DNA from: Clostridia bacterium
Lineage (GTDB): Bacteria; Bacillota; Clostridia; Christensenellales; CAG-138
Assembly: GCA_017394835.1 (NCBI GenBank)
Contig: JAFPXD010000067.1
Span: 15,929-79,928 of the forward strand
Length of the DNA stretch: 64,000 bases
Reading direction: 5' to 3'
Part shown: positions 12,232 through 55,326 of the stretch, in pieces
How positions within the stretch are numbered: position 1 is the stretch's first letter
Layout: each line of letters starts with the position of its first letter
The notes under the pieces: generated by a model
Told to the model about the DNA's origin: nothing
The model's database searches: none
Seen by the model: only the letters and a program-made list of their open reading frames with translations
Program-made: the position numbers and the translations under genes

Positions 12232-12284
12232 GTCACGAAAGGGCCCGGCTGTTCTAAAATAATATATTTTTGATTATCCGTATT

Positions 12285-12320: not shown

Positions 12321-12354
12321 TGTTATAATAAGGCAAAGCAAAGGAGGCTTCCCC

Positions 12355-15236: not shown

Positions 15237-15251
15237 TCACGGAGGTCAATT

Positions 15252-16298: not shown

Positions 16299-16358
16299 AA
16301 CCTTAGGGGAGCTCCTTTTTAGGGGCTTCCCAAAGCTGTTTATATGGAGGTATTTTAA

Positions 16359-18052: not shown

Positions 18053-18084
18053 TGAAGCTAAACAACACACACGGAGGTTTATTT

Positions 18085-18450
18085 ATGAAACGTGACGACG
18101 ATTTCAAAGATCGCCATCAGCATTTGAAGGATCTGACCGATGAGCAGATCGATGCTCGCTTCTGGGAGCTTGCGAATAAGCTCGTCGATCCCCTTCTTCA
18201 GATGGGCAAGGAGTACACTTCTCCCGCTATAGAGCGTTCCGTTCTTCTTCGCATGGGCTTCTCCTCCATCGAGGCGAAGGCAATAGTGGAAGGCTGTATG
18301 GAGCGTTCGCTCATGTGCTACGGCGCAGGCAACGTGGTTTACCGTCTTGCCAAGGCCAAGGGCATGGAGATCCGTCCCGCGGGTCTCGAACTTGTGAACG
18401 GCCGTCTTTGGGACGAAGCCGCCGATCTTTTCAAGGGAGGTAACGAATAA
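18085..18450 (+). CDS. oraS: D-ornithine 4,5-aminomutase subunit S
   Basis: 121-aa small subunit. RBS ACGGAGG precedes ATG 18085. The stop overlaps the oraE start. Confidence 0.85.
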   Translation: MKRDDDFKDRHQHLKDLTDEQIDARFWELANKLVDPLLQMGKEYTSPAIERSVLLRMGFSSIEAKAIVEGCMERSLMCYGAGNVVYRLAKAKGMEIRPAGLELVNGRLWDEAADLFKGGNE

Positions 18451-40615: not shown

Positions 40616-41588
40616 GGGTCAAAACCAGTATTATGAGTCTTAGTCCCGCGAATACAATAAGCGACAAACCCGCCGCGGCGAACATTATCCTGTTTGCACG
40701 GGTAATGTCGGTGTTTTCTATCTCGCGCACAGGGTCGCCTATGAACTCCTTTTTGTGCAGCGCGCCGTGATAGTATGCGTCGCCCGCGAGCCGCAAGCCC
40801 AGCAGTCCCGCCATAACAGATTCGGTCTGGGCGGAGTTGGGGCTCGCGTGCTTATAACGGTCGCGTCTGAATATGCGGAGGCCGTTTTTCGCATCGAAAC
40901 CGAGCAGCGCCCCGCCTGAAAGCATTATGACGGCGGACAGCCTTGCGGGAATGAAATTGAAAAGATCGTCGAGCTTCGCGGGAAAGAAGCCGAAATGCTT
41001 ATACGGCGGCTCAACGTAGCCGAGCATCGAATCCATCGTGTTGACGGCCTTATACAGCATTCCGAGCGGCCCGCCGCCTATCGCAAGAAACATGAGCGGC
41101 GCGATCACGCCATCCGAGGCGTTTTCCGCAACGGTCTCCACGGCGGCGCGGGCTACGGCCTTTTCGTCAAGGGAAGCCGTATCGCGCCCGACTATCATTG
41201 AAACGGCCCTGCGCGAAGCTTCAATATCGCCCGTATCAAGGGCATATTTCACCTTCATGCTCTCGTCGCGGAGAGACCTTGCGGCAAGGCACTGCCAGCA
41301 CATTACGCTTTCGGCGGCAAACCCGAACCACGGAGTGACCTTGTAAAGCAAAAACAGAATGACGGCGGGAACTGCGAACGCCGCGGCTGCGACCATTGTC
41401 CAGAGCACTCCTCCCGCGGCCTTTTCTCCGCGTTCCGTTTTCGGGAACGCCTTTCTCAAAAGCTTTTCCAATGCCGAAATAAGCTTCCCCATGAGCACCA
41501 CAGGATGCGGGATCGAATGCGGATCACCGACCGCAATATCTATGACCGCGCCCGCGAGGAGCGCGAATAAAGACCATTTACCGAACAT
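40605..41588 (-). CDS. cbiB: Adenosylcobinamide-phosphate synthase (CbiB)
   Basis: Integral membrane protein with GDPHSIPHPV and SPNSAQTES motifs typical of CbiB/CobD. Confidence 0.88.
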   Translation of the reverse strand: MFGKWSLFALLAGAVIDIAVGDPHSIPHPVVLMGKLISALEKLLRKAFPKTERGEKAAGGVLWTMVAAAAFAVPAVILFLLYKVTPWFGFAAESVMCWQCLAARSLRDESMKVKYALDTGDIEASRRAVSMIVGRDTASLDEKAVARAAVETVAENASDGVIAPLMFLAIGGGPLGMLYKAVNTMDSMLGYVEPPYKHFGFFPAKLDDLFNFIPARLSAVIMLSGGALLGFDAKNGLRIFRRDRYKHASPNSAQTESVMAGLLGLRLAGDAYYHGALHKKEFIGDPVREIENTDITRANRIMFAAAGLSLIVFAGLRLIILVLTHAL

Positions 41589-43558
41589 CAGCCCTGAAAT
41601 GTGAACACGTAAACGGGGTTGCGCGCAGTCATAAGGTTATACCCCCCGATCCGACGCGCCTTTGAAACGTTTATCATAACGGCTTCCTTTTCGGCAAAGT
41701 CCCTCTCATTCATAAGCTTGGTGAGCTCCGCCGCCGTTTCGAGCGATACTGCCGCCGCGACTATCCGCGCGTGTGGCGATCTCTCCCATACAAGCTCCGC
41801 TATCTCGCGAATGCTGCCGGAGCTGCCCCCTATGAAAACGTGCGTGGGAGCGGGCAGATCCGTGCATGCTTCCGGGGCCGCGCCCGTGACCGAAACAATG
41901 TTCACCGTGCCGAAGGCCTCCGCGTTGGCTTTCAAAAGCTCAGCGGCTTCGGGCTTTTTCTCTATCGCATAAACCTTTCCGCGAGGAGCGGCGAGCGCCA
42001 TTTCAACGGAGACCGAGCCCGTTCCCGCGCCAACGTCCCAGCACACCGAATCGGGCAAAAGACGAAGCTTTGACATGACTATCGCCCTTATTTCGGATTT
42101 GGTCATGGGCACTATGGGCTTTTCATCCGCGCTGCGGGTAAACGCCTCGTCCGGGAGCCCCGCGGCGGAGCTTTCGATATTATCGTTTTCAATGAGGAGC
42201 GCGCAAAGGGGATCGAACTTTGTGTTTTTAAGCTCCGCGGCAGAGCCCTCTGTGATGCGTTCCTCCGGATAGCCGAGCCTTTCGCCCGCCCAAAGCTTTA
42301 CGTTTTCAAGGCCCGCTGAGCAAAGCTCCTTAATGAGCTTCCCCGCGCCGTTCTCACCTCCGACGAGAGCGAACACGCTGCGGTTCCTGCGGACGGCCGG
42401 GACGATCGCGGCGTCTCTTCCATGGAGGCTGACCGCCGCCGTGTTTTCGTAAGAAGCCCCCGCCTTTGCGCAGAGGTATGAAAGCGAGCTTACGCCCGGT
42501 ATCACCCTCACATCACAAAAATCGAGCTTGGGAACGAGCTTTTTGGCTCCGCTGAAGAAGCCGACGTCGCCGCTCAGCATGACCGCAAAGCGGGAGAATT
42601 CCTTGTGTTCCTTTATTACGCTTATTATCGCATCCGGCGATATTGCCTCGAATACCGTCTGATCCGGCCTCGCAGTCTCAAGCATGCGGGCGGCGCCTAT
42701 AAGGCATTCCGCATGGGAAGCCGCTTCCGCCGCTTCCGCAGTCATGCCCGCTCTTGTTCCCGTACCCACTCCTATTACGCTTACGCTCGGGCGCGATACG
42801 AACCCGAAACGCTTTTCTAAAAGCTCCAGCGTTTCTTCAAACGTTGATCCCAGAGCGCCGCTTTCCGGACGCCCTATGACAATGAGCTTCGCGCCCGCCT
42901 TCATTGCGGCAAGCGCCTTTTCCTCAAAGCCGCCCGCCTTGCCGGAATCCTTCGTTACGACGTAAGCGGCGTTCACGGACTTTATCATAGCCGCGTTCAT
43001 GCCCACGGAGAATGGCCCCTGCATCGCGAGTATGTGGGAGGGCTTCAGACCCGCCTCGCGGCAGGCGGTTATAGAGCTTTCAACAGGGAGCACCCTTGCA
43101 AAAGCTCTTTCATCAAAATCTTTGATCCCCGAAAAAGCGGCAAGCTCCTTCGAACCCGTAGTCAGCAGGATATTGCCTATCGCACCGCTTAAGTATTCCA
43201 CCGCTTCCGGAATATCCTTTACGCAGACGGCGCTTTCCGGCGCGCCTTCTCCGCTTCTTTCGACGCGAAGGTATTCCGTGCCCGTTTCAAGGCAAGCATG
43301 CATCAGGTTTTCAGTCACGACGGACGCATACGGGTGGGTCGCGTCTATGACAAGATCAAAGCGCTCTTTTGAAAAGAGCTCCTTCATCTCCTCAAGATCC
43401 ATTCTCTTGGACAGCACCTTGAGCTTTTCGGCGGGTTCTATAAGCTCCCCGCCGTATTCCGTCGCCGTGCAGGCCGTAACGAGAGCATCCTGCAGGCTGA
43501 GAAGATCCGCTATCCTTCTTCCTTCGGTGGTTCCGGCAAAAACACAGAGCTTAAACAT
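41588..43558 (-). CDS. cbiJ-cbiE-cbiT: Triple fusion: cobalt-precorrin-6A reductase (CbiJ) + cobalt-precorrin-7 C5-methyltransferase (CbiE) + cobalt-precorrin-6B C15-methyltransferase, decarboxylating (CbiT)
   Basis: aa 1-~245 are CbiJ-like (CVFAGTTEGR, IDATHPYA, MQGPFS). aa ~250-455 are CbiE-like (VIGVGTG...VIPGVSS). aa ~460-656 are CbiT-like with SAM motif WDVGAGTGSVS. Confidence 0.85.
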   Translation of the reverse strand: MFKLCVFAGTTEGRRIADLLSLQDALVTACTATEYGGELIEPAEKLKVLSKRMDLEEMKELFSKERFDLVIDATHPYASVVTENLMHACLETGTEYLRVERSGEGAPESAVCVKDIPEAVEYLSGAIGNILLTTGSKELAAFSGIKDFDERAFARVLPVESSITACREAGLKPSHILAMQGPFSVGMNAAMIKSVNAAYVVTKDSGKAGGFEEKALAAMKAGAKLIVIGRPESGALGSTFEETLELLEKRFGFVSRPSVSVIGVGTGTRAGMTAEAAEAASHAECLIGAARMLETARPDQTVFEAISPDAIISVIKEHKEFSRFAVMLSGDVGFFSGAKKLVPKLDFCDVRVIPGVSSLSYLCAKAGASYENTAAVSLHGRDAAIVPAVRRNRSVFALVGGENGAGKLIKELCSAGLENVKLWAGERLGYPEERITEGSAAELKNTKFDPLCALLIENDNIESSAAGLPDEAFTRSADEKPIVPMTKSEIRAIVMSKLRLLPDSVCWDVGAGTGSVSVEMALAAPRGKVYAIEKKPEAAELLKANAEAFGTVNIVSVTGAAPEACTDLPAPTHVFIGGSSGSIREIAELVWERSPHARIVAAAVSLETAAELTKLMNERDFAEKEAVMINVSKARRIGGYNLMTARNPVYVFTFQG

Positions 43559-44282
43559 TTCTGTACCCCCTCGGAGTTACCATGCTCCCGTTTATCATTT
43601 TGGCAGATGAATTGCCTATAAAAACCGTGCAGAACATATCCGCCGGGAACTCCGCAAGCTCCGAAAGCGGCATGAAGAATCGCTCCTCCCCCTCGCGCCC
43701 TATATTGCGGGCAACGCCGCAGATACGGTCTTCGGGAAGGTATCTCAAAAGTATTTCGCAGGCCTTTTTCAGATGATCGGGGCGGCCGTGGCTCGCCGGA
43801 TTGTAAAGGGCGATCGAAAAATCCGCCTCCGCCGCGTTCACCAAACGCTTTTCTATGATCGCCCATTCCGTGAGCCTGTCGGAAAGCGATATAACGGCGA
43901 AATCGTGCGTGAGCGGCGCGCCCAGAAGCGCCGCGCCCGAGCAGGCGGCGGTAAGACCGGGTACTACCTCTATCTCGGGCTCCGCGTCTTCACCGCGAAG
44001 CTCGAAGCAAAGCCCCGCCATGCCGTAAATGCCGCTGTCGCCGGAGCAGACGAGCGCGGTATTCCTGCCTTTTTTCGCTTCGTCCAACGCCATGCGGCAG
44101 CGCTCCGCTTCACGCGTCATGGGAGTGGTGAGGTATTCCTTTTCGGGATAACGCGCTTTTACAAGCTCGACGTAAACGTGATAGCCTATTATCGCGTCCG
44201 CGCTTTTCAGCGCCTCGTCCGCGCGGACGGTCATGTTTTCGTAATTGCCGGGGCCTATGCCCACAACGTAAAGCTTACTCAA
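43551..44282 (-). CDS. cbiH: Cobalt-factor III / precorrin-3B C17-methyltransferase (CbiH)
   Basis: LYVVGIGPGN and VCSGDSGIYGMA motifs. TTG 44282 follows GGAGGT by 5 nt; the track start (TTG 44303) would contain that RBS. Confidence 0.88.
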   Translation of the reverse strand: MSKLYVVGIGPGNYENMTVRADEALKSADAIIGYHVYVELVKARYPEKEYLTTPMTREAERCRMALDEAKKGRNTALVCSGDSGIYGMAGLCFELRGEDAEPEIEVVPGLTAACSGAALLGAPLTHDFAVISLSDRLTEWAIIEKRLVNAAEADFSIALYNPASHGRPDHLKKACEILLRYLPEDRICGVARNIGREGEERFFMPLSELAEFPADMFCTVFIGNSSAKMINGSMVTPRGYRNV

Positions 44283-45285
44283 ATCGCACCTCCGTTTTTT
44301 CAAGCGCGGCGGCGACTGTCACGCCGCCCTGCGCAGTCTTCCTTATTATGAGCTCGTCCGCTCCCATAAGCGCCGCGCGCTCGCATACGTTATCCACGCC
44401 CGTCACGCTCTTCACGAAATCGGAGGGGGTGAAATCGCCCTTGACGGCGGCAAGCTCCTCCGCCGAATAAAAGCTTATCGGGAGCCCTCTTTCACGGCAA
44501 AATCCCAAAAGGCCCGCCTCGTCCTTTTTGAGGTCTATGGATGCGGCGGATTTTACCGCGCGCGGGTCGATCCCTTTTTCCTCAAGCACAGTGTTTACGG
44601 CGTTTTCGATCGCTTCCTTCGTCGCGCCCCTTCGGCAGCCTATGCCGAGCGTTACGCATTTTGGGATGAGGCGGAGAGTTCGATTAAACGGCTCTTCGGT
44701 ACGGTACGTGATAAAGATCCCCGTAACGCCTTCGCCTATCTTGAGCCCAGCGGGGAGCTCGCCCGTTATCGGAAGATCGCTCTTTAGCGGGACTTCCCCC
44801 TCGAGCACGGCGGCGGAAACGGCCTTCGCTGCCCCCATGTCGCTTATTTCGTAACCCTGCGTTTTCGCCCATGAATCCACGGAAAAACGGCCGTTCCTGT
44901 CAGTCGCGGTAGTGACGACGGGCACGGCGCCTATGGCTTCGGCAATGCGCTCCGTGAGCTCGTTCGCGCCGCCCAGATGCCCGGAAAGAAGGGAGACCGC
45001 GAACCTTCCCGTTTCATCGACGGCGATAACGGCGGGATCGGTCGTTTTGCTCTTTACAAAGGGCGCTACGCACCTTACCGCGATCCCGCAGGAGGATACG
45101 AAAACGAGCGCTTCGGATGCGCCGAACGCCTCCTCATAGAGCGGCGCCGAGGGCTTTGGAAGGGGCAAAAAGCCATCGCCCGAAAGCCTTTCAGCAGTAT
45201 AAAAGCGGAGCTCGCCCGAAAGCGCTTCGCCTATGCGACGCGCGGTCTCGATCCCTTTTTTGCTGTATGCGAAAAGCGTTATCAT
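44275..45285 (-). CDS. cbiG: Cobalt-precorrin-5A hydrolase (CbiG)
   Basis: Two-domain CbiG architecture (LVFVSSCGIAVR, VTLGIGCRRG). ATGA overlap with cbiF; the track start at 45357 is an extension. Confidence 0.85.
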   Translation of the reverse strand: MITLFAYSKKGIETARRIGEALSGELRFYTAERLSGDGFLPLPKPSAPLYEEAFGASEALVFVSSCGIAVRCVAPFVKSKTTDPAVIAVDETGRFAVSLLSGHLGGANELTERIAEAIGAVPVVTTATDRNGRFSVDSWAKTQGYEISDMGAAKAVSAAVLEGEVPLKSDLPITGELPAGLKIGEGVTGIFITYRTEEPFNRTLRLIPKCVTLGIGCRRGATKEAIENAVNTVLEEKGIDPRAVKSAASIDLKKDEAGLLGFCRERGLPISFYSAEELAAVKGDFTPSDFVKSVTGVDNVCERAALMGADELIIRKTAQGGVTVAAALEKTEVRFE

Positions 45286-46034
45286 TTGGCCTTCCTGAAC
45301 TCCGTTGTGAATTTCGGGTCGTACAGAAGCGAGCGCAGGTAATCTTCGCCCATACATCCGCCTACTATTATTAGGCTCGTTTTCTTCAAGCCGTTCTCCG
45401 TGACGGTCTTATGGAGCGTTCCCACCGTGCAGCGGAATATGCGTTCGTCCGGCCAGGTCGCCTTATAGACCACGGCGGCGGGGGTATCCTCGGTATAACC
45501 GCCCTCTATGAGCTCCCGCTGGAGTTTTTCTGTAAGCGAGGTCGAAAGGAAGAGCACCATGGTCGCGTTGTGCGCAGCCAAGGATGCGATGCTTTCCTTT
45601 TCCGGTACGGGCGTTTTGCCCGCGGCTCTCGTTATTATGACCGTCTGGCTGACGCCGGGAAGGGTGTATTCCGCCTTCAGAGAGGCCGCCGCTCCGCAGA
45701 ACGAGCTGACACCGGGGGTCACGTCGTAATCTATCCCGAGGGCGTCGAGCTCATCGAACTGCTCGCGCACCGCGCCGTAGATAGAGCTGTCGCCTGTGTG
45801 GAGGCGGACGGTGGTCTTCCCCGCCGCTTCCGCGTTTTTTATGGCCTCAACGACCTCTTCAAGGGTCAGCTTCGCGCTGTCCATTATCTCGCAGTCGGGT
45901 CTGCAGTAAGAAAGCAGCTCCGGATTGACGAGCGAACCCGCCCATATCACGACGTCCGCTTCCGAAAGGAGCCTCGCGCCGCGCACGGTGATGAGATCTG
46001 CGGCGCCCGAGCCCGCTCCCACAAAATGCACCAT
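45282..46034 (-). CDS. cbiF: Cobalt-precorrin-4 C11-methyltransferase (CbiF)
   Basis: VHFVGAGSGAADLITVRG and RLHTGDSSIYGA motifs. ATG 46034 lies 7 nt after GGAGG. The alternative ATG 46040 overlaps the cbiD stop. Confidence 0.88.
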   Translation of the reverse strand: MVHFVGAGSGAADLITVRGARLLSEADVVIWAGSLVNPELLSYCRPDCEIMDSAKLTLEEVVEAIKNAEAAGKTTVRLHTGDSSIYGAVREQFDELDALGIDYDVTPGVSSFCGAAASLKAEYTLPGVSQTVIITRAAGKTPVPEKESIASLAAHNATMVLFLSTSLTEKLQRELIEGGYTEDTPAAVVYKATWPDERIFRCTVGTLHKTVTENGLKKTSLIIVGGCMGEDYLRSLLYDPKFTTEFRKAK

Positions 46035-46036
46035 AG

Positions 46037-47173
46037 TCATTCCTCCGTAAAAAAGTTCAGGTATCCGCGGGCGTTTTCGGTCTCGCCCAGGACCCCGTAT
46101 TCCTTTGAAAACATTATCATTTCAACGCTCATCCCGTCGCCTGCGCGGTGGGAAAGATTTGCTTTCGCCCTTGCCGTGACGCTTTTGAGAGCGGCTTTTT
46201 CAAGCACGGGATCGGCCTCGCGCATGAGGCGCACAGCCTCGTCGCAGGCGACGCATTCCAGCATCTTTTTAATAAGTCCCGTGTCCGCTCCCGCCGCGCC
46301 CGCGTGGGCGGCCAGTATCTCCATGCGGCAGTCGCCGTATTTGGAGTGGGTGTTCATCATATTGCCAGCGAGCTTCACGAGTTTCCCGATATGTCCTATC
46401 AGCAGGAGCCTTTTGAAGCCGAGCTCACGGCAAATATCAAGCGTATCCCCTATGAAATTTGAAGTCTGCACGGCTTTTTCCGGGTCTGTGCCGAGGCTCG
46501 CTCTTATGAACTCCGCTCCGTAATTGCCGGGGGTCAGAAGCGCGGTTTCAAACCCCAAAGCCCTTCTTTGTGAAAGCTCGGCGCGGATCGTATCGACGAG
46601 CGCCTTTTCGCTCATTGGCTCCACTATGCCCGTCGTACCGAGCACCGATATGCCTCCGACGATGCCGAGCCGTGGATTGAAGGTCTTTTTCGCAAGCTCC
46701 TTACCCTGTGGTATGGATATCACTACGGAAAGCCCCTCACCGCAGTCGAAAAGCTTCATGACCTCCTCTGTGTTTTCCTTTATCATGAGCCGCGGTACGG
46801 AGTTTATAGCCGCGTTCCCGACAGGCTGATCGAGGCCGGGCTTTGTAACTCTGCCCACTCCCTCGCCCCCGTCGATAGTCACTCCGGGCGTGTTCGAATA
46901 CGTTACGCAAGAATACACTAGCGCGCCGTCCGTTATATCGGGATCGTCGCCCGCATCCTTTCTGACCGCACAGGATACGGCGGTATCGCTCATTGCTATA
47001 TCCTCAATATCGAGCTCGAGCGTTATTCCCTTCGGCGTTTCGAGCGTAATATGCTCCTTGCGTCTGCCGGATAAAAGCATATAGGCCGCCGCCTTCGAGG
47101 CCGCCGCCGCGCAGGAGCCGGTAGTATAGCCGAGTCTTAATCTTTTGCCGTCCTGAATGATAAATTCGTTCAT
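46037..47173 (-). CDS. cbiD: Cobalt-precorrin-5B C1-methyltransferase (CbiD)
   Basis: LRLGYTTGSCAAAASKAA and GISVLGTTGIVEPMS motifs. Confidence 0.9.
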   Translation of the reverse strand: MNEFIIQDGKRLRLGYTTGSCAAAASKAAAYMLLSGRRKEHITLETPKGITLELDIEDIAMSDTAVSCAVRKDAGDDPDITDGALVYSCVTYSNTPGVTIDGGEGVGRVTKPGLDQPVGNAAINSVPRLMIKENTEEVMKLFDCGEGLSVVISIPQGKELAKKTFNPRLGIVGGISVLGTTGIVEPMSEKALVDTIRAELSQRRALGFETALLTPGNYGAEFIRASLGTDPEKAVQTSNFIGDTLDICRELGFKRLLLIGHIGKLVKLAGNMMNTHSKYGDCRMEILAAHAGAAGADTGLIKKMLECVACDEAVRLMREADPVLEKAALKSVTARAKANLSHRAGDGMSVEMIMFSKEYGVLGETENARGYLNFFTEE

Positions 47174-47799
47174 TTCGTTATCCGGTAAAGCATTGCGTTG
47201 ACTATAGCCGCGGCAACGTTAGAGCCGCCCTTCCTGCCGCGCGCAACGATGTGCGGCACGGAGGACGCGATGATCAGTTCCTTCGATTCCACTACGTTCA
47301 CGAAGCCCACGGGCACGCCTATTATGAGCTTCGGGGAAAGCCGCCCCTCCCTCATCAGCTCGTCCAATGCGATAAGCGCCGTCGGCGCGTTGCCTATCGC
47401 GAATATAAGCGGCTTTTCAAGCTTCGCCGCCTTCTCCATGGAGACCGCGGCGCGGGTGACGCCGCGCGCCTTGGCTTCAGCCGCCACGTCGTCATCGCTC
47501 ATGAAGCAGCGGACCTCCCCGCCGAGCTTCGAAAGGGCCGCTTTGCTTATTCCCGCTTTTGCCATCTGCGTATCGGTCACTATATCGCAGCCGCTGTTAA
47601 GGGCTTCGATCCCGATCTTTACCGCATTTTCGGAAAAAACGAGGTTGTTGACGTACTCGAAATCGGCGGTCGTGTGAATGACGCGCTTTATTACGGGCTC
47701 GTTTTCGGGATCGAGCACGACTCCCTCTTCGGCAAGGATGCCGGAGATGATCTCAAAGCTGCGTTTTTCTATATCCATGGGTCTTAATATCTCAAACAC
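47170..47799 (-). CDS. cbiC: Cobalt-precorrin-8 methylmutase (CbiC)
   Basis: IEKRSFEII, VIHTTADF and IGNAPTAL motifs. GTG 47799 is preceded by AAGGAG. Confidence 0.9.
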   Translation of the reverse strand: MFEILRPMDIEKRSFEIISGILAEEGVVLDPENEPVIKRVIHTTADFEYVNNLVFSENAVKIGIEALNSGCDIVTDTQMAKAGISKAALSKLGGEVRCFMSDDDVAAEAKARGVTRAAVSMEKAAKLEKPLIFAIGNAPTALIALDELMREGRLSPKLIIGVPVGFVNVVESKELIIASSVPHIVARGRKGGSNVAAAIVNAMLYRITK

Positions 47800-49147
47800 G
47801 ATGCTTCTCCTTTATGCAGGCGTTGTAAAAGCCCGCGGCAAATACTGGGTTCGCGTAAAAATGGATGTGCGGATAGCCCGCGTAAAGCGTTTCTGAGGCG
47901 TGTACGCAGGGCCAGCTCCTGCCGTCGGGCTTTCGCGCGGTAAAGTCCCCGCCCGGGCGCTCCGCATCCCAATGATGGAATTCGTGCGCGGGGATGCTCC
48001 CGCCCGCCGGGCAAAGCATATTATCGCGCTCGGCGGTCAGCGTGACGTAGCCGAAGCGCGTGAGCCTTCCGTTATCGAAGCTCCTTCCCTTTATCAAGCC
48101 GACCATGGGAAGCGCGCCAATCGCCTCCGTCAGATACATGAAGCCGCCGCATTCGGCAATGCAAGGCAAGCCTTTTTTCAAGGCTTTGCTTATGCTTTCG
48201 CGCATTGATATGTTTGCAGAAAGCTCCTTTGCGTAAAGCTCCGGATAGCCTCCGCCGAGGTAAAGGCCGCAAACGTTTTCGGGAAGCCGCTCATCCTCCA
48301 TGGGGCTGAACGGTATGAGCTCGGCGCCCATCTCGCGCAGAAGCTCCAGGCTGTCTTCATAGTAAAAACAGAACGCCTTATCACGGGCGACCGCTATGCG
48401 GACGGGCTCGCGTTTTTCGGTCTTGACCGCTTCGTATAAAAGCTTCGGCGCGGTTCCCGCCAATTCCATGACCCCGTCAATATCGAGGCTCTTTTCCGCC
48501 TGTTCGGCAAGTCTTTGCAGTTTTTCCTTTATATCAGAGATCTCTTCCGCGGTTACAAGCCCCAGATGGCGGCTGCCTATCTCGCATTCCGCCATGCGCG
48601 GCATGAAGCCGAGGGGCTTTATGCCGAGTCGGGAGCTAATCTCCGGAGCAAGCGCCGAATACACCTTCCCGGAGCAGTTGTTGAGAATTACGCCCTTTAT
48701 CAAGCTTTCCGGCACGAATTCCGAAAAGCCCTTTATCTGCGCCAATACGGAAAGCGAGGCGCCCTTCGCGTTCACGATGAGGACCGCGGGCGTTTCGGTA
48801 ACTCCTGCAAGATCGTACGCGCTCGCCTTCATCGTCGTAAGGCCGAGCCCGTCATAATAGCCCATCACGCCCTCTATGACGGTGATATCCCTTCCCCTTC
48901 CGTTTTTCGCAAGCAGGAAGCGAAGCGTGTTTTCATCGAAAAAGAACGGATCGAGATTGGATGATGGCGCGCCGATGACCTTTCTGTGGAACATCGGGTC
49001 TATGTAATCGGGGCCGCATTTGGCTCCGCCCACATCTATCCCGCGATTTTTGAGCGCCTGCAGCACGGCGCAGGTCACGGTCGTTTTTCCGCAGCCCGAG
49101 CCCGTGCCGGCTATGATCACCCTTTTTACGCTTGCTTCCTCAATCAT
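47792..49147 (-). CDS. cbiA: Cobyrinate a,c-diamide synthase (CbiA)
   Basis: GTGSGCGKTTVT P-loop and GATase domain AECGGFMYL. ATG 49147; the track start at 49180 is an extension. Confidence 0.9.
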   Translation of the reverse strand: MIEEASVKRVIIAGTGSGCGKTTVTCAVLQALKNRGIDVGGAKCGPDYIDPMFHRKVIGAPSSNLDPFFFDENTLRFLLAKNGRGRDITVIEGVMGYYDGLGLTTMKASAYDLAGVTETPAVLIVNAKGASLSVLAQIKGFSEFVPESLIKGVILNNCSGKVYSALAPEISSRLGIKPLGFMPRMAECEIGSRHLGLVTAEEISDIKEKLQRLAEQAEKSLDIDGVMELAGTAPKLLYEAVKTEKREPVRIAVARDKAFCFYYEDSLELLREMGAELIPFSPMEDERLPENVCGLYLGGGYPELYAKELSANISMRESISKALKKGLPCIAECGGFMYLTEAIGALPMVGLIKGRSFDNGRLTRFGYVTLTAERDNMLCPAGGSIPAHEFHHWDAERPGGDFTARKPDGRSWPCVHASETLYAGYPHIHFYANPVFAAGFYNACIKEKHRV

Positions 49148-50234
49148 AGTGCAAAAGCCCCTTTTCCTTTGCGATCTCAAGCAGTTTACCGTTATACTCG
49201 TTGAGTTTTCCGATAGGAGCGCCCGCGTCTATCACTTCCTCGCAGGACAGCATGAGCGCCCGCGCCCTAATAAAATGCTCTTCCCGCATGGGCTCGAACG
49301 CCGTCGCCGTAACGCATTCCGAAGCAAGATTATTTGCGACGGCTGCATCCACGTCGTTTTCAAACAGTATCCCCGCGGCAAAAGGCACGCGCTCCCTTTG
49401 CAGTCTTCTCATGACGGGGATGCCGAAGCCGGCTCCAGCTATTACGAATACCTTGGGCTTCCCTTCCGCTTTTTCAAGCTCAACGCTTCCGAACGCGGCG
49501 TTATAGGAACCCTTTTTAAGATCGTAGAGCTCCTCAATGGGGACCTTTTTTATGACCTCATCGGGCGTGCCGAATGCGGCGATCGTCTCCCCCTTAACGC
49601 AAAGGAGCAGATCCGAAGCTTTCGCCGCAAGATCCGTTTCGTGCAGGCTCATTATCACCGTAACGCCGCGCTCGCGGGCAAGATACCTTAAAACGGAAAG
49701 CAGCTCCGTCTTGTGCTTTATATCGAGGAAGGCCGTCGGCTCGTCAAGTATCAGAAGCTCCGGCTGCTGAGCAAGCGCGCGCGCAAGAATAACGCGCTGC
49801 TTCTGACCGTCCGAAAGGGTCATAAAATCGCGATCCGCAAGCGGCTTAACGCTGACGAGCTCAAGCGAGTCGTCAACAATGCGTTTATCTTCATCGGTCA
49901 TTCGTCCGACAATATTCGTATAGGGGTATCTGCCGAGTTCGACGATCTCGCGCACCGAAAGCAGTTCGGGCCTTATACGGTCGGTAAGCACGACGGCCTG
50001 TTTTTTGGCAAGCTCCTTCACCGTCATCGCCGAAAGCTCCCCGCCTTCGATCGCGACCGTGCCGCGGATCGCCGCAAGCTGGCGGGCGATCGTCTTCAAT
50101 ATGGTTGATTTGCCCGAGCCGTTGGGCCCGATGAGCGTGAGTATCCCGCCCTTTTCGAGCGCTATATCTATATCGCGGATAAGCGTTTTTCCGTTATAAC
50201 CGACTGCAAGGCCGCGCGTTTCAAAAAAGCTCAT
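49140..50234 (-). CDS. BtuD/FecE-like ABC importer ATPase with a ~110-aa C-terminal extension
   Basis: Walker A GPNGSGKST, signature LSDGQKQRV, Walker B LLILDEPTAFLD, then an extra domain KVFVIAGAGFGIPVMRRL...LLHYD. ATGA overlap with the permease. Confidence 0.85.
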   Translation of the reverse strand: MSFFETRGLAVGYNGKTLIRDIDIALEKGGILTLIGPNGSGKSTILKTIARQLAAIRGTVAIEGGELSAMTVKELAKKQAVVLTDRIRPELLSVREIVELGRYPYTNIVGRMTDEDKRIVDDSLELVSVKPLADRDFMTLSDGQKQRVILARALAQQPELLILDEPTAFLDIKHKTELLSVLRYLARERGVTVIMSLHETDLAAKASDLLLCVKGETIAAFGTPDEVIKKVPIEELYDLKKGSYNAAFGSVELEKAEGKPKVFVIAGAGFGIPVMRRLQRERVPFAAGILFENDVDAAVANNLASECVTATAFEPMREEHFIRARALMLSCEEVIDAGAPIGKLNEYNGKLLEIAKEKGLLHYD

Positions 50235-51268
50235 GCCGACTCCCTTCTGCGACGCGAGATCATCATTGAGATCACTATCGGAGCGCCGAATATGCTCGTG
50301 ACCGTGCCTATATTGAGCTCGGTAGGCGCGAATACGGTCCTTGCGATAAGATCGCAGAACACGCAGAATACCGCCCCCGCCAGGAACGCCGCGGGGATCA
50401 CAAAAGCGGGACGGGACGTTTTAAGAAGCCTTCTTGTAATATGGGGTACGGCGATCCCCACGAATGAGATCGGGCCCGCAAGCGCCGTCACGCAGGCTGA
50501 AAGCAGGCTTGAAAGAAGTATCAGCGCAACACGGAAAGGCTTTACCGAAACGCCCATGCTTTTTGCGTACCCTTCGCCCAATGCATAAGCGCCCATGGGC
50601 TTTGAAAGCAGCCATGAAGTCAATACCGCGGGCAGGCAGATGACGGCCGCCGTAACTACCGAATCCCAGCCCTTTCCCGAGAAGGTTCCCATGGACCAGT
50701 ATTTGAGATTTACTATATCCTGTTCGGAAGCGAAAGTGACCGCCATATCGGTGACCGCAGAGCAGATATACCCCACCATTATGCCGACCACGAGCAGCAG
50801 CTCCATGTTCTTGACCTTTTGAGAAAAGAGCAGTACGAGCGCGGTTATGAGCAGCGAGCCCAAAAAGGCAGCGGCTACCGTCACTCCCGGGCTCATGGCG
50901 ATCCTGCCCGTCAGGAATATCATCGTGATCCCCACTATCATTTTAGCGCCCGAGGATATGCCGAGCACGAACGGACCCGCTATCGGATTGCGGAAGAAGC
51001 TTTGGAGCAGGAAGCCCGAAACAGCGAGCGCGCCGCCCAAAAGCGCCGCCAAAAGCATTCGCGGCATTCGGACGTTGAAGAGGATAATGCTTTCTGTCGA
51101 TGCGTCCTTTCCGTTAAACAGGAGCGCCCGGATCTCCCCGAGGGTCAGGCGCACGGAGCCTATCGCGAGATTCAGAAACAGCGCCGCCGCGAGCAGACCG
51201 AAAAGAAGCATCATCACTGCGGCGAAGCGGCTTACCGTATTTCTTTTTGAAGCGTTTTCGGCGCGCAT
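50231..51268 (-). CDS. BtuC/FecCD-family ABC importer permease
   Basis: About 9-10 TM helices with FecCD hallmarks (PRMLLAALLGGALAVSG, VGIAVPHITR). GGAGGG RBS precedes ATG 51268. First gene after the riboswitch. Confidence 0.85.
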   Translation of the reverse strand: MRAENASKRNTVSRFAAVMMLLFGLLAAALFLNLAIGSVRLTLGEIRALLFNGKDASTESIILFNVRMPRMLLAALLGGALAVSGFLLQSFFRNPIAGPFVLGISSGAKMIVGITMIFLTGRIAMSPGVTVAAAFLGSLLITALVLLFSQKVKNMELLLVVGIMVGYICSAVTDMAVTFASEQDIVNLKYWSMGTFSGKGWDSVVTAAVICLPAVLTSWLLSKPMGAYALGEGYAKSMGVSVKPFRVALILLSSLLSACVTALAGPISFVGIAVPHITRRLLKTSRPAFVIPAAFLAGAVFCVFCDLIARTVFAPTELNIGTVTSIFGAPIVISMMISRRRRESA

Positions 51269-51278
51269 ATACCCTCCG

Positions 51279-51572
51279 AAAAAACAATAAAAGACCGAGC
51301 ATGGCAATAAGCATGCACGGCCGTTTTTCCGCACTTAAACAAACGCCTCCGCCTTCTGTCCTTCGGCTCAAGGCTCACTCAAGCAGGTCTTCCGGCTTGC
51401 GCATCAACGGCTTTGGGAGCGCCTTCTCGGGCAAATTGCCCAATGGCCGACTTTCGTCCGCTCCCGCCTTCGCGCTTACGGCGGCGGTTCCGCTCGGGAT
51501 TTTCACCCGATTGTCTATTCTCCCCCAAAGGCAGTTGAGCCAAAGGGGGCACTCGAGTTCTTTCGTCACAGC
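51279..51572 (-). promoter_or_regulatory. Cobalamin riboswitch (minus strand) with intrinsic terminator expression platform
   Basis: Minus-strand core GGGTGAAAATCCCGAGCGGAACCGCCGCCGTAAGC (reverse complement of ~51471-51510). B12 box GCCGGAAGACCTGC (reverse complement of 51383-51396). Terminator CCGTGCATG-loop-CATGCTCGG plus TCTTTTATTGTTTTTT (complement 51279-51320). Confidence 0.88.
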
Positions 51573-51573
51573 T

Positions 51574-51602
51574 ATTTTAATGTTTGGGAAACGGTTTGTC
51601 AA
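51574..51602 (-). promoter_or_regulatory. Sigma-A promoter (TTGACA-17 nt-TAAAAT) of the btuCD-cbi operon
   Basis: The reverse complement of 51597-51602 is TTGACA, and of 51574-51579 is TAAAAT. Confidence 0.75.
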
Positions 51603-51648: not shown

Positions 51649-51677
51649 TTGACAAAACCTTTAATGGGAGTTATGCT
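51649..51677 (+). promoter_or_regulatory. Sigma-A promoter (TTGACA-17 nt-TATGCT) of the lipoprotein operon
   Basis: -35 at 51649-51654 and -10 at 51672-51677. Confidence 0.7.
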
Positions 51678-51694
51678 CAAAATAATCGAATAAG

Positions 51695-51978
51695 CGTTTG
51701 AGTGCGCCGCCCTGCCTTCGGGCTCTGCGGCGAGAATAGGGAATCCGGTGCAAATCCGGAACGGTACCGCCACTGTATGCGCGTAGAAACCGTCATGTGA
51801 CGAAAGTCGGTCATTGAGGGAAACCTTGAGAAGGCTGATGTCGGTTTTGCTGATGCGTGAGTCAGGAGACCTGCTTGGATGTGTGTTATCGGTGCGCCCT
51901 CGGTCGTGGGGCGGATCGGTATGCTTTATGTGTGCATATCTTTAAGCGGAGCGGTATTCAGGCTCCGCTTTTATTATT
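51695..51978 (+). promoter_or_regulatory. Cobalamin riboswitch (plus strand) with intrinsic terminator expression platform
   Basis: Core AATAGGGAATCCGGTGCAAATCCGGAACGGTACCGCCACTGTA (51734-51776). B12 box GTCAGGAGACCTGC (51861-51874). Terminator AGCGGAGC-loop-GCTCCGCT plus TTTTATTATTT (51945-51978). Confidence 0.92.
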
Positions 51979-52042
51979 TCAGACGCGTATTCTTATTGGA
52001 TAATATTTGCCCTCAGGGGCTTAAACATCAGGAGGTTTTACA

Positions 52043-53224
52043 ATGAAAAAACTCGTAAAGATCCTTAGCATCGCCCTTGCTCTCTGCATGGCGCTGGGCC
52101 TCGCCGCCTGTGCGAAGAAGCCCGTTCCCGATGCGCAGAAGACCGACAAAGAGCTCGCCGACGAAGTCGCCAAGCTCATTGACGCCATCTACGTTCAGGC
52201 CCGCACCGATAAGACCGATGAGGAGTGCGCCGCCGCAAAGGCCGCGTGGGACAAGCTCACCGACGCTCAGAAGGAGCTCGTCGAAGGCGAAGAGGCAGAT
52301 CCCGATTACTTCGGCCGCGACACCGGCGACGCCAAGAAGGACGATCCCCGCAACGCGGACGAGATCGGCGAAAAGGAGCTGCTCGTCGTTTCCTTCGGCA
52401 CCTCTTTCAACGACAGCCGCGCTCTTGACATAAAGGGCATCGAGGACGCCATTGCCGCCGCATTCCCCGAGTGGAGCGTGCGCCGCGCCTTCACCGCGCA
52501 GATCATCATCAACCACGTTCAGGCCCGCGATAACGAGAAGATCGACAACATGGATCAGGCTCTCGAGCGCGCCGTCGCCAACGGCGTAAAGACCCTCGTC
52601 ATCCAGCCCACCCACCTTATGCACGGCGCCGAGTATGACGAGCTCAAGGCCGCCGCCGACAAGTATGCCGACAAGATCGAAAAGATCATCATTTCCGAGC
52701 CTCTCCTCGGTGAAGTGGGCGCGGACGCTTCCGCCGTCAACACCGATAAGGAAGCCGTAGCCAAGGCCGTTGTAGCCGCCGCCGTTGCCGACGCCGGTTT
52801 TGCCACCATTGAGGAAGCAGAAGCCGCGGGCACCGCTTTCGTACTCATGGGTCACGGCACCTCCCACACCGCGAAGGTCAGCTATTCCCAGATGCAGGCG
52901 CAGATGAACGCGCTGGGCTACAAGAACGTATTTATCGGCACCGTTGAGGGCGAGCCCGAAGAGACCGCCTGCGAAGCCGTTATCGAGGCCGTTTCCGCCG
53001 CCGGTTACAAGAACGTCGTGCTCCGTCCTCTTATGGTCGTAGCCGGCGATCACGCCAATAACGATATGGCCGACGCCGAGGATCCCGAATCCTGGCTCTC
53101 CATGTTCACCGCTTCCAAGAAGTTCGAGAAGATCGACTGTCAGATCGCCGGTCTCGGCCGTCTTGCTGACGTCCAGGCGCTTTACGTTGCTCATGCTCAG
53201 GCGGCTGTTGATTCCGCCAACTGA
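52043..53224 (+). CDS. cbiK: Lipoprotein-anchored (exported) sirohydrochlorin cobaltochelatase CbiK homologue
   Basis: Signal peptide with lipobox LAAC and a ~75-aa charged linker. Class-II chelatase core: LLVVSFGTSFNDSR, RRAFT, QPTHLMHGAEYDEL and LMGHGTSH. RBS AGGAGG. Confidence 0.8.
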   Translation: MKKLVKILSIALALCMALGLAACAKKPVPDAQKTDKELADEVAKLIDAIYVQARTDKTDEECAAAKAAWDKLTDAQKELVEGEEADPDYFGRDTGDAKKDDPRNADEIGEKELLVVSFGTSFNDSRALDIKGIEDAIAAAFPEWSVRRAFTAQIIINHVQARDNEKIDNMDQALERAVANGVKTLVIQPTHLMHGAEYDELKAAADKYADKIEKIIISEPLLGEVGADASAVNTDKEAVAKAVVAAAVADAGFATIEEAEAAGTAFVLMGHGTSHTAKVSYSQMQAQMNALGYKNVFIGTVEGEPEETACEAVIEAVSAAGYKNVVLRPLMVVAGDHANNDMADAEDPESWLSMFTASKKFEKIDCQIAGLGRLADVQALYVAHAQAAVDSAN

Positions 53225-53232
53225 TAATACGA

Positions 53233-54027
53233 ATGAACATCAGAAAGACTTTTTCATTTTTCCTCTGTGCCGCCGTCCTGTGTCTTCTGTTCGCCGCGTG
53301 CGGGCAGAAGCCGGACGGTAAGGCGCCGATCGCGGACGGAGTCTATTCCGCCGATTTCAAGACGGACGGCTCCATGTTCCACGTGAACGAGGCCCATCAC
53401 GGCAAGGGCACCCTCACCGTTAAGGACGGCAAGATGACCATTCACATCACCATGCCTTCCAAGAACACGGTCAACCTGTTCCCGGGCCTTGCCGAGGATG
53501 CGCAGAAGGAAGGCGCCGAGCTCATACAGCCGACTCTGGATACCGTCACATATGAAGATGGCACGACCGAGGAGGTCTATGGCTTCGATATCCCCGTTCC
53601 CTATCTCGATAAGGAATTCGACTGCGCGCTCGTGGGCACCAAGGGCAAGTGGTACGATCATAAGGTATCCGTATCAAATCCCCAGCCCGTTTCCGATAAC
53701 GCCGAGTCCATAAAGGACGGCGAGTACCTCTGCGAGGTCACCCTGTCCGGCGGAAGCGGCAAGGCGAGCATCGAAAGCCCCGCGAAGATAACCGTGAAGG
53801 ACGGAAAAATGACCGCCGTGATCGTATGGTCGAGCAGCCATTACGAATACATGACGATCGGCGAGGTCAAGTATGAGCCCGTCAATACCGAGGGCAATTC
53901 CACGTTCGAGATACCCGTCGAGCTCGATCGCGATATAGCGGTATCGGCTCTCACCACAGCCATGAGCGAACCGCATCTTATCGATTACACCATCCGCTTC
54001 GACGGTTCCACCATTAAGTCCAACTGA
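53233..54027 (+). CDS. Lipoprotein of unknown function with an internal tandem duplication
   Basis: Signal peptide with lipobox FAAC. Two ~125-aa repeats each carry DG-x-Y ... TVKDGKMT (DNA 53416-53439 versus 53791-53814). Confidence 0.7.
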   Translation: MNIRKTFSFFLCAAVLCLLFAACGQKPDGKAPIADGVYSADFKTDGSMFHVNEAHHGKGTLTVKDGKMTIHITMPSKNTVNLFPGLAEDAQKEGAELIQPTLDTVTYEDGTTEEVYGFDIPVPYLDKEFDCALVGTKGKWYDHKVSVSNPQPVSDNAESIKDGEYLCEVTLSGGSGKASIESPAKITVKDGKMTAVIVWSSSHYEYMTIGEVKYEPVNTEGNSTFEIPVELDRDIAVSALTTAMSEPHLIDYTIRFDGSTIKSN

Positions 54028-54102
54028 TTTGGCTCCGTGTGTCTTCTGCGTGCGTCGGCATGTTCGGCGTGCGCAGAAGTTTTCACTATGTAAAGGAGGA
54101 TC

Positions 54103-55230
54103 ATGAAACGCATTGCCGCTTTAGCACTCGTAATACTGTCTCTGTTTTCGCTTATCGGCTGCCGCGAGCACCCCAATTCGGGCGCGCTCGGAAACGGCTG
54201 GGAGCCCGTTTCGAAAACGGAGCTTTCCTTCGCTCACGAATTTTCGATAGACGAGTACGAAGGCGGTTACAAGCTCGTTACCATCAACGACGGCGGCAGG
54301 TTCCTCATCGTACCGGAGGGAATGGATGCGCCCAAAGGTATCGCTTCCGATATAGCGGTGCTTAAAAGGCCCGTCCGGAATATCTATATTGCGGCAACAG
54401 CCGTTATGTGCCTTTTCGACGGGCTCGGCCGTCTCGACGCGATACGCCTTTCCGGCACGAAGGCCGAGGGCTGGTACATTGAGAACGCCCGTAAGGCGAT
54501 GGAATCGGGCTCCATTCTTTATGCGGGCAAATACTCACAGCCCGATTACGAGCTTATTTTGAAGGAGAATTGCCCTCTTGCCATTGAATCCGGCATGATA
54601 GGGCATGCTTCCGACGTGAAGGCACAGCTTGAAAAGCTCGGCGTGCCGGTGCTCATCGACCGTTCAAGCTACGAAACGCATCCTCTGGGGCGCACCGAAT
54701 GGGTAAAGGTTTACGGCGCGATCCTCGGCGAGGAGGAAAAGGCCGAAGCGCTGTTTCGCGAACAGGTCGCGCTTATGTCTTCCGTGGGCGGTACCAATAC
54801 GGGCAAGACCGTCGCTTTCTTCCGCATAAGCGGAACAGGCTATGCGGTCGCCCGCAGATCCGGCGATTACGTCAGCAAAATGATAGCACTTGCCGGAGGC
54901 GAATACGCGTTCAAGGATCTCGGCGGCGAAAGCGCCATGGCGACCGTTAATGTCGAAATGGAGACCTTCTTCGCCACCGCACGCAATTCCGATATAGTAA
55001 TTTATAACAGCACCATCGGCGGAGAAGTCGCCAATATGGATGAATTCCTGGCGCTCAATCCGCTTATGAAGGAACTGAAGGCCGTTCAAAACAGCGCCGT
55101 ATGGTGCACGCGTGAAAGCATGTATCAGCAGACTCTCAATATAGGCCGAATGATAAGCGAGCTCAACGAAATAATGAACGCCTCTCCCGAAGAAGATCCC
55201 GATCTCGTCTATTTCTTCCGTCTGCACTGA
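54103..55230 (+). CDS. BtuF-like ABC importer substrate-binding lipoprotein (cluster A-II / Peripla_BP_2 type)
   Basis: Signal peptide with lipobox LIGC. Two-lobe iron-siderophore/cobalamin binding-protein architecture. RBS AAGGAGG. Same riboswitch-controlled transcript. Confidence 0.8.
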   Translation: MKRIAALALVILSLFSLIGCREHPNSGALGNGWEPVSKTELSFAHEFSIDEYEGGYKLVTINDGGRFLIVPEGMDAPKGIASDIAVLKRPVRNIYIAATAVMCLFDGLGRLDAIRLSGTKAEGWYIENARKAMESGSILYAGKYSQPDYELILKENCPLAIESGMIGHASDVKAQLEKLGVPVLIDRSSYETHPLGRTEWVKVYGAILGEEEKAEALFREQVALMSSVGGTNTGKTVAFFRISGTGYAVARRSGDYVSKMIALAGGEYAFKDLGGESAMATVNVEMETFFATARNSDIVIYNSTIGGEVANMDEFLALNPLMKELKAVQNSAVWCTRESMYQQTLNIGRMISELNEIMNASPEEDPDLVYFFRLH

Positions 55231-55250
55231 TCTTCATTGATTCGTTCCCG

Positions 55251-55306
55251 CGCCTTTTTTGAGCGTTTCCGGATCCGGATCCGCCGTTCCTGAAAGGCGT
55301 TTTTTT
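55251..55306 (+). terminator. Probable intrinsic terminator (branched hairpin plus T7)
   Basis: CGCCTTT ... AAAGGCG stem enclosing the self-complementary CCGGATCCGGATCCG, followed by TTTTTTT. Confidence 0.5.
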
Positions 55307-55326
55307 ATGCCGAGGCTTTCGGCTTC

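Follow-up and report, generated by a model that had tools for sequence, protein, structure and literature searches.

We analyzed a window of 64,000 nucleotides from a Clostridia bacterium (contig JAFPXD010000067.1 of assembly GCA_017394835.1, positions 15,929 to 79,928), in which three co-directional lipoprotein genes lie behind a cobalamin (B12) riboswitch. The three open reading frames (ORFs) encode an exported chelatase of the CbiK family (ORF1), a protein with two predicted NEAT-fold domains (ORF2), and a BtuF-like substrate-binding protein (ORF3). A second operon, encoding a BtuCD-like importer and cobamide-synthesis enzymes, diverges from the same region behind a cobalamin riboswitch of its own. 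Our results make it probable that these parts form a B12-repressed surface line that handles a tetrapyrrole and feeds the importer. The features of the locus are given below, with positions counted from the first letter of the window.

51649-51677, plus strand: sigma-70-type promoter of the lipoprotein operon, TTGACA-17-TATGCT, 10 of 12 consensus matches
51683-51892, plus strand: cobalamin riboswitch aptamer (RF00174), 95.0 bits against a gathering threshold of 31.5, E 2.2e-22
51944-51979, plus strand: intrinsic terminator of the predicted expression platform, a 9-bp G+C stem followed by the U-rich tail UUUUAUUAUUU, -19.3 kcal/mol, z-score -3.7
52043-53224, plus strand: ORF1, lipoprotein CbiK
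53233-54027, plus strand: ORF2, lipoprotein with two predicted NEAT-fold domains
54043-54083, plus strand: intercistronic hairpin between ORF2 and ORF3, perfect 16-bp stem followed by UUUU, -29.1 kcal/mol, z-score -6.0
54103-55230, plus strand: ORF3, lipoprotein, BtuF-like class III substrate-binding protein (Peripla_BP_2)
55250-55307, plus strand: probable operon-end terminator, a long hairpin followed by U7, called from structure only, its z-score not being significant
51574-51602, minus strand: divergent promoter, TTGACA-17-TAAAAT, 11 of 12 consensus matches
51365-51571, minus strand: second cobalamin riboswitch (RF00174) at the head of the btuCD-cbi operon, 88.3 bits, E 1.8e-20
50231-51334, minus strand: btuC-like FecCD permease of a type II ATP-binding cassette (ABC) importer; the gene callers' start is 51268
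49140-50234, minus strand: btuD-like ATPase with a C-terminal MJ0874-type extension, from profile matches
38121-49180, minus strand: cbiA, cbiC, cbiD, cbiF, cbiG, cbiH, a cbiJ-E-T fusion, cbiB, cobD, and cbiP, in the same operon as btuC and btuD

The plus-strand RF00174 match spanned model positions 1-189 of 189 and scored three times the Rfam threshold. The terminator stem and its U-tract sit 64 nt before the ORF1 start codon, a position suited to an expression platform that could switch off the downstream genes. ORF1 and ORF2 are separated by 8 nt, and ORF2 and ORF3 by 75 nt. Each N-terminus has a basic n-region and a hydrophobic core ahead of its lipobox, which is LAAC with Cys23 in ORF1, FAAC with Cys23 in ORF2, and LIGC with Cys20 in ORF3. 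Export signals were called by matching to the Gram-positive lipoprotein pattern, supported by conservation of the signals in homologues. A first-pass annotation, made from the letters alone, had placed a promoter, a B12 riboswitch, and a terminator before three closely spaced co-directional lipoprotein genes with these gaps and lipoboxes. Each of these elements was recovered at the same positions. Its picture of a three-gene module stood as to the genes and their control; the functional unit, however, is larger and takes in the divergent btuCD-cbi operon, whose riboswitch at 51365-51571 had been overlooked.

The minus-strand operon holds 12 genes, namely btuC, btuD, and ten cobamide-synthesis genes. 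No cbiL, cytoplasmic cbiK or cbiX, or cbiMNQO was found in it (38121-51334). Neither cbiL nor a cytoplasmic cbiK nor a cobalt transporter occurred in the 10 kb beyond the right end of the window, where unrelated genes lie, and a leftward look-up almost confined to the window itself likewise returned unrelated genes and none of these three.

For comparison, we assembled 80 loci around the closest ORF2 relatives, with one genome per species and flanks of up to 8 kb; they are cited below by L numbers. These loci came from rumen and gut Clostridia (Oscillospiraceae, Lachnospiraceae, Christensenellales, Mogibacterium, and Eubacterium) and from some Spirochaetia. The set represents the nearest relatives of ORF2, and remoter family members may have other contexts. 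The hairpin between the NEAT and BtuF genes recurred in L005-L016 and L019; its outer stem, CUUCUGCG/CGCAGAAG, was kept in related loci, and the inner pairs varied. The hairpin probably acts by terminating part of the transcripts or stabilizing the mRNA, and so gives more CbiK and NEAT protein than receptor. In L001, a public 55-aa ORF call (8647-8814, corresponding to about 51879-52046 of the window) covers the 3' end of the riboswitch and the terminator upstream of cbiK and is almost certainly spurious.

ORF1 matched the Pfam CbiK family (PF06180) with 218 bits, against a threshold of 26.2, over profile positions 1-261 of 262. Cys23 of the lipobox is followed by a helical linker of about 85 residues and by a class II chelatase domain at residues 111-389. 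In this domain, H271, E302, and H337 align with H145, E175, and H207 of Salmonella CbiK, which are metal-binding and catalytic. We compared 77 CbiK domains, of which 76 came from the loci (including the cytoplasmic copy of L055) and one was that of ORF1. The positions of H271 and H337 and the chelatase motifs were invariant in all 77, and E302 was found in 76, the exception being an alignment gap. The description of ORF1 in the first-pass annotation, as a full-length CbiK with intact metal-binding histidines, agrees with these results. A decayed, non-catalytic CbiK scaffold was considered as the default and rejected because the chelatase motifs are invariant.

Among solved relatives, ORF1 scored 112 bits with the cytoplasmic Salmonella CbiK, 101 bits with P. 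gingivalis FetB/IhtB, and 87 bits with D. vulgaris CbiKP; its score with the sirohydrochlorin cobaltochelatase equivalog NF047852 was 168 bits, below the cutoff of 400. In the alignment, ORF1 reads YDELKAAAD where CbiKP has FHGLLETAH, with Asp in place of both histidines. We take these two histidines to be the pair that creates the inter-subunit heme site of CbiKP. The linker (residues ~24-110; window 52112-52370) has a conserved helical pattern, KELADEVAKLIDAIYVQ...AAAKAAWDKLTDAQKELV, which was also present in spirochete homologues; it had no Pfam match and was missing in the CbiK subgroup of L057, L059, L075, and L082. Strict lipobox patterns were found in 65 of the 76 CbiK homologues, and the remainder mostly had variant lipoboxes or type I signals, the latter in Spirochaetia and a few others. 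The possibility that the ORF1 signal peptide is an annotation artifact was rejected, as lipobox and linker were kept in most of the 76 homologues. Lipoproteins of 742-1043 aa with two tandem CbiK domains occurred in L048 (480-3611), L055 (5634-7862), and L081 (5496-8369). L055 also encodes, in the same operon at 11786-12586, a signal-less CbiK of 266 aa, which was the only cytoplasmic copy in the 80 loci.

ORF2, to which the first-pass annotation could assign no family, is by its modeled structure a tandem of two NEAT-fold domains, D1 (residues ~30-156) and D2 (residues ~157-264). The AlphaFold model (pLDDT 86) showed two beta-sandwiches, and a Foldseek search with it returned IsdH-N2N3, IsdB, IsdX1, and IsdX2-N5 with a probability of 1.0 at about 20% identity; the single-domain TM-score to IsdX2-N5 was 0.70. 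A comparison of D1 with D2 by hhalign showed them to be homologous (92%, E 6.5e-7). The Pfam NEAT score (PF05031) was 28.0 bits, below the gathering threshold of 32.8, and no stretch passed alone. Sequence searches against solved structures, with phmmer and with D1 and D2 profiles, gave nothing usable, and fold comparison alone worked. The NEAT fold is a known carrier of tetrapyrroles and, in Isd systems, hands heme to a class III binding protein; the predicted fold of ORF2 thus strengthens the reading that a tetrapyrrole is handled outside the cell.

Ligand residues were mapped by our own alignment and an extrapolated Pfam match. On this mapping, the YxxxY heme motif appears altered to Y141xxxV145 in D1 and H248xxxY252 in D2, and a YxxxY in D2 was retained in one homologue only, that of L084. 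An invariant SMFH lip is assigned to D1 and an invariant Met244 to D2. The ORF2 family comprises 1,893 clusters at 50% identity (E ≤ 1e-3), mostly from rumen and gut Clostridia, with up to six repeats, and NCBI labels its members "iron transporter". At 8595-9869, L060 encodes a further protein of 424 aa that starts with a type I signal peptide, contains two diverged NEAT-like domains, and is anchored in the membrane at its C-terminus. Val stands in place of His at the putative axial position of its D2-like domain; homologues of this protein were found in L058, L061, L063, and L079.

ORF3 matched Peripla_BP_2 with 103 bits, and its AlphaFold model had a pLDDT of 90. The top Foldseek match was V. 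cholerae BtuF (5ysc, E 1.4e-12), and CeuE, 3md9, HutB, ShuT, and BhuT scored alike. In sequence searches, ORF3 had no NCBIfam match and a single weak match in the Protein Data Bank (PDB), Lmo2184. The importer scored 267 bits (FecCD) and 102 bits (ABC_tran) with Pfam. Its best NCBIfam names were "vitamin B12 ABC transporter permease BtuC" (218 bits against a cutoff of 334) and "corrinoid ABC transporter ATPase" (219 against 537), both below cutoff. In the PDB, the permease was about equally near to HmuU, FhuB, and BtuC (169 bits for HmuU and 151 for BtuC). PDB sequence searches of ORF3 and BtuC, with AlphaFold and Foldseek for ORF3, therefore did not separate specificity for B12 from that for heme or siderophores, as all scored alike. 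Since genes of the ORF3 type adjoin btuC-btuD in most of the 80 loci, we regard ORF3 as the cognate receptor of the importer, in agreement with its first-pass description as a BtuF-type partner of the divergent BtuCD. The receptor family conserves aromatic and acidic residues together with Met and His, and only two Arg. Two paralogous BtuF-like proteins are encoded in tandem after the NEAT gene in L018, L027, L033, and L053, which may point to two forms of the cargo or to separate roles in docking. The C-terminal extension of the BtuD-like ATPase (49140-50234, minus strand) measures about 110 aa and matches Pfam MJ0874, as in archaeal corrinoid ABC ATPases.

The association of these genes was strongly conserved. 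Exported CbiK was adjacent to the ORF2 relative (within 3.5 kb on the same strand) in 75 of the 77 evaluable loci, and a BtuF-like gene was nearby in 62 of them. BtuC and/or BtuD were present in 61 of the 80 loci, and at least one cobamide-synthesis gene in 54. The most frequent order was CbiK, NEAT, BtuF, BtuC, BtuD, CbiA, CbiC, CbiD. A riboswitch-like leader preceded the module in 63 of the 74 loci with enough upstream sequence, 49 being standard RF00174-like leaders and 14 forming a divergent group. A first-pass proposal that the chelatase and the ORF2 protein belong to corrinoid metabolism had hinged in part on their neighborhoods, and by these counts the two genes reside in cobalamin loci, not in heme or iron loci. 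With the riboswitch above threshold and the export signals present and conserved, each refuting condition of that proposal that could be run computationally came out in its favor.

Divergent leaders upstream of exported cbiK were located in L021 (6457-6642), L024 (4876-5052), L026 (2259-2438), L028 (6451-6641), L029 (2331-2520), L039 (6469-6637), L017 (2132-2293), and L018 (177-329); the loci that combine such leaders with exported cbiK belong to Oscillospiraceae/Ruminococcaceae. The leaders keep the GGTTCGAATCC, CCATTACTGTA, and AGTCAG elements of the cobalamin riboswitch, have lost GGGAA, carry AGTCAGTTAACTGCCGTATC at the B12 box, and do not reach the gathering score of RF00174 (16.7 bits in L028). 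RNAalifold gave an implausible consensus for them. They may be a variant riboswitch with a changed ligand preference, or a decaying one.

The NEAT domains occurred in several combinations: a free-standing D1-D2 protein (51), D1 alone (17), D2 on the N-terminus of the binding protein (11), D1 with CbiK at either end (9), D1-D2 with CbiK (4), and D1 with the binding protein (2). By this distribution, D1 and D2 act as separate modules. The fusions pair CbiK with D1 and the receptor with D2. Taken together with the Isd precedent of transfer from NEAT domains to a class III binding protein, they suggest a path from CbiK through D1, D2, and the receptor to BtuCD, and we infer this order of hand-off.

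In L058, L060, L061, and L063, a single riboswitch-led operon encodes the lipoprotein CbiK, a D1 lipoprotein, and a membrane-anchored di-NEAT protein, followed by CbiL (190 bits, above the cutoff of 163), a DrrAB-type ABC-2 exporter, CobA/HemD, SirC, a BioY-family protein, and a D2-BtuF fusion. Such an operon thus provides for the synthesis of sirohydrochlorin and for the step that follows chelation, and it encodes both an exporter and the import receptor. No chelatase besides the lipoprotein CbiK was found in these four operons. Likewise, the lipoprotein CbiK is the sole chelatase beside cbiL or ring genes in L084, L073, L074, and L049. When the 34 in-cluster ORFs that had no other assignment were screened with Pfam, CobT, CobU, CobS, and CobC were found, and no CbiM, CbiN, CbiQ, NiCoT, or CbiX in any cluster. 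The exporter, of DrrAB/NodIJ type, is encoded between cbiL and cobA/hemD (L060:9900-14871; also L058, L061, L063, L078, and L079). In loci of the L060 type, its ATPase gene overlaps cbiL by 4 nt, and the BioY-family membrane protein shares the cobalamin-riboswitch-led operon with it.

As the cargo of this line, we tentatively favor cobalt-sirohydrochlorin made at the cell surface over corrinoids captured ready-made. At low cellular adenosylcobalamin, both riboswitches would permit transcription, and the three lipoproteins with BtuC-BtuD would form one cobalamin-repressed tetrapyrrole line on the outer face of the membrane. Sirohydrochlorin, exported by the cell itself or released by neighbors, would receive scarce Co2+ outside the cell from the ATP-independent CbiK. 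The tethered NEAT domains would prevent loss by diffusion and pass cobalt-sirohydrochlorin to the receptor. The module would then import the cobalt tetrapyrrole, and in the cytoplasm CbiL and the later Cbi enzymes would take it further along the cobamide pathway. The tetrapyrrole would thereby serve as the cobalt carrier of the cell, replacing a cobalt-ion transporter and a cytoplasmic chelatase. CbiK is known to metalate sirohydrochlorin at sub-nanomolar Co(II) with no need for ATP (PMC10206600). In its full form, the proposal places the committed step of anaerobic B12 synthesis, in which cobalt is inserted, outside the cytoplasm, with sirohydrochlorin secreted or scavenged, metalated at the surface by CbiK, channeled by NEAT domains, and reimported by a BtuFCD-type transporter as a "cobaltophore"; we consider this possible, though short of likely.

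Several observations weigh against cobalt-sirohydrochlorin as the cargo. No exporter, cbiL, cobA, or sirC lies near the locus of the window. Twenty-six of the 80 loci have no cbi gene in the sequence covered, and 4 have late genes only (cbiP, cbiB, cobD). A cytoplasmic CbiK or CbiX, cbiMNQO, or another cobalt transporter may lie outside the flanks examined, and the module operon of L055 does carry the 266-aa cytoplasmic CbiK. D. vulgaris, too, reportedly has a cytoplasmic CbiK, and its exported CbiKP is said to bind heme. The exported relative solved in 9b86 is named "Heme-binding protein FetB". The invariant His/Glu/His could equally suit axial ligation of a finished metallo-tetrapyrrole, and the two conserved Arg of the receptor family seem, as a weak indication, unlike what an octa-carboxylate ligand would be expected to require.

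Much of this would fit a relay in which CbiK, D1, D2, and the receptor bind ready-made cobamides, or late intermediates like cobinamide and cobyric acid, from the rumen or gut pool and pass them to BtuCD. Here the CbiK domain would be a binder whose histidines ligate cobalt, and not an enzyme. BtuFCD-type importers behind cobalamin riboswitches are the standard route of B12 uptake, which makes capture the default for such a locus, and the best NCBIfam names of permease and ATPase, albeit sub-cutoff, point the same way. The module stands alone in, for instance, L042, L064, and L065, and is accompanied only by late or salvage genes (cbiP, cobT, cobU, cobS, cbiB) in L035, L044, and L050, among others. 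The aromatic and acidic conservation of the receptor family suits amidated corrinoids, the metallo-tetrapyrrole bound by the exported relatives FetB and CbiKP is a finished one, and L055 keeps its separate cytoplasmic CbiK. Analogy with Isd for heme and with BtuJ/H/K/G for B12 in Bacteroides, where multi-lipoprotein extracellular B12 relays are known (PMC13616437), also favors capture. However, capture requires a second, unseen chelatase wherever the lipoprotein CbiK occupies the cbiK position beside cbiL, sirC, and cobA/hemD. It leaves unexplained the embedded ABC-2 exporter and the lack of a cobalt transporter in the 54 cbi-linked loci, and it offers no reason for strict conservation of the catalytic Glu and of the whole chelatase motifs. 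We regard corrinoid capture as a serious possibility that is only slightly less probable than surface-made cobalt-sirohydrochlorin.

Heme or iron acquisition is improbable. Such a system, built like Isd or Iht, would use its NEAT domains together with a CbiK-like "reverse ferrochelatase" to take heme or strip its iron for import, and a NEAT fold with a class III binding protein is indeed the Isd parts list. FetB/IhtB and CbiKP are described as heme-binding, the permease is slightly nearer to HmuU than to BtuC, and ORF2 homologues bear the NCBI name quoted above. Yet cobalamin riboswitches, not an iron regulator, stand on both sides, and cobamide-synthesis genes are co-transcribed or adjacent in the 54 loci already counted. 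The canonical YxxxY has changed in both D1 and D2, the histidines that we take for the heme ligands of CbiKP align with Asp in ORF1, and the operon has no heme-degrading enzyme or sortase signal. About as improbable is that the exported CbiK works in reverse as a dechelatase freeing Co2+ from environmental cobalt tetrapyrroles, or merely binds Co2+, and that the transporter imports the metal in place of a macrocycle. The intact metal-binding triad, the reverse-chelatase role proposed for IhtB, and the lack of a nearby cobalt transporter would suit such stripping. On the other side, type II importers with class III receptors generally carry metal chelates, not free ions, the cobalt of corrins is kinetically inert, and a locus would have no need of two to four NEAT domains as tetrapyrrole carriers. 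A small chance is left for a cargo other than those of the four readings.

Two Gram-negative systems resemble the module most. P. gingivalis IhtABCDE and D. vulgaris CbiK(P)/cbiL-btuCDF also place an exported CbiK beside a BtuFCD/FecBCD-type importer with a reported B12 riboswitch. The B12 element reported in Desulfovibrio lies ahead of cbiK-cbiL and btuCDF, and no cobalt transporter of a known type was identified there (PMC545781); in P. gingivalis, ihtABCDE, in which IhtB is a CbiK-like lipoprotein and IhtA a BtuB homologue, lies behind a B12 riboswitch (PMC3764172). The exported CbiKs of these two species had been cited as precedents in the first-pass annotation, and they are closer than it held, their loci themselves being reported behind B12 riboswitches. 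Both systems differ from the module in being Gram-negative, with a TonB receptor or a periplasm, in having no NEAT component, and in having been interpreted as heme or iron systems. ORF1 itself lacks the histidines of the CbiKP heme site, has an N-terminal helical linker, and is no nearer to FetB or CbiKP than to Salmonella CbiK. A 2024 paper describes the physiological role of CbiKP as still undetermined.

The Isd relay of Staphylococcus and Bacillus (NEAT to IsdE to IsdF) shares surface NEAT domains, a lipoprotein class III binding protein, and a FecCD permease with the module. It is sortase-anchored and Fur-regulated, whereas the module is lipid-anchored and regulated by B12 riboswitches, has a sub-threshold NEAT Pfam score with YxxxV and HxxxY for YxxxY, includes a chelatase partner and no heme oxygenase, and lies in a cobamide-synthesis context. 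The BtuJ/BtuH/BtuK/BtuG proteins of Bacteroides are likewise riboswitch-controlled surface lipoproteins upstream of a core B12 transporter, and relay parts are fused in both systems (BtuGH in Bacteroides; D1-CbiK and D2-BtuF here). The Bacteroides relay, however, uses unrelated folds (DUF4465, beta-propellers, and others) and is based on an outer membrane and TonB. No DUF4465, BtuG/BtuK beta-propeller, or BtuH C-terminal domain was found in ORF1-ORF3, for which Pfam gave only CbiK/CbiX, NEAT, and Peripla_BP_2. The canonical cbi operon of Firmicutes (cobA/hemD-cbiK-cbiL-cbiMNQO-...-sirA) shares genes with the loci studied here, and cbiK stands beside cbiL in loci of the L049 and L058-L063 type. 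In contrast to that operon, CbiK is here a lipoprotein accompanied by NEAT domains, cbiMNQO is absent with a chelate-type importer in its place, and some loci include an ABC-2 exporter.

Elsewhere in the window, genes at about 15250-20675 (plus strand) encode OrtA, a PALP enzyme, OAM alpha, and a Lys-AminoMut_A protein with a B12-binding domain, the ornithine/lysine aminomutase at 18450-20675. This B12-dependent gene set indicates that the host organism consumes cobamide. Upstream of a gene for a class I aminoacyl-tRNA synthetase (1878-4361), there is a T-box leader (RF00230, 96.7 bits; 1688-1913, plus strand).

The combination of exported CbiK, a chelate-type ABC importer, and a B12 riboswitch is thus already on record in two Gram-negative lineages. 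Four features appear to be new. Two of them are the NEAT-fold partner with its pair of specialized domains and the support that fusions lend to a relay. The other two are the Gram-positive form made of lipoproteins, which is abundant in Clostridia of the rumen and gut, and its position inside cbi operons, where it takes the place of a cytoplasmic chelatase and of a cobalt transporter. A full-text literature search found no description of extracytoplasmic cobalt chelation or of a NEAT/CbiK/BtuF module, in keeping with the first-pass remark that no such module had been described in Firmicutes. A 2026 review calls extracellular cobamide capture in Gram-positive bacteria "entirely uncharacterized".

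These findings bear on annotation as well as on physiology. The label "iron transporter" on ORF2 homologues misleads metabolic reconstruction, and a lipoprotein named "sirohydrochlorin cobaltochelatase" is miscounted as a cytoplasmic pathway enzyme. Cobalt insertion at the surface, if true, would be categorically new, and no such route is on record in Gram-positive bacteria. It would also account for the exported CbiKs that B12 riboswitches control in Desulfovibrio and P. gingivalis. P. gingivalis is said to keep the genes from precorrin-2 to B12 without those for precorrin-2 synthesis, and this old "enigma" of a corrin pathway would be explained too. Members of gut and rumen communities compete for cobamides, and the B12 supply of ruminants is limited by cobalt. 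The module provides a testable parts list, including a use of the NEAT fold beyond heme biology, offers a reason for the puzzling exported CbiK proteins of three phyla, and may represent an extracytoplasmic step in B12 biosynthesis.

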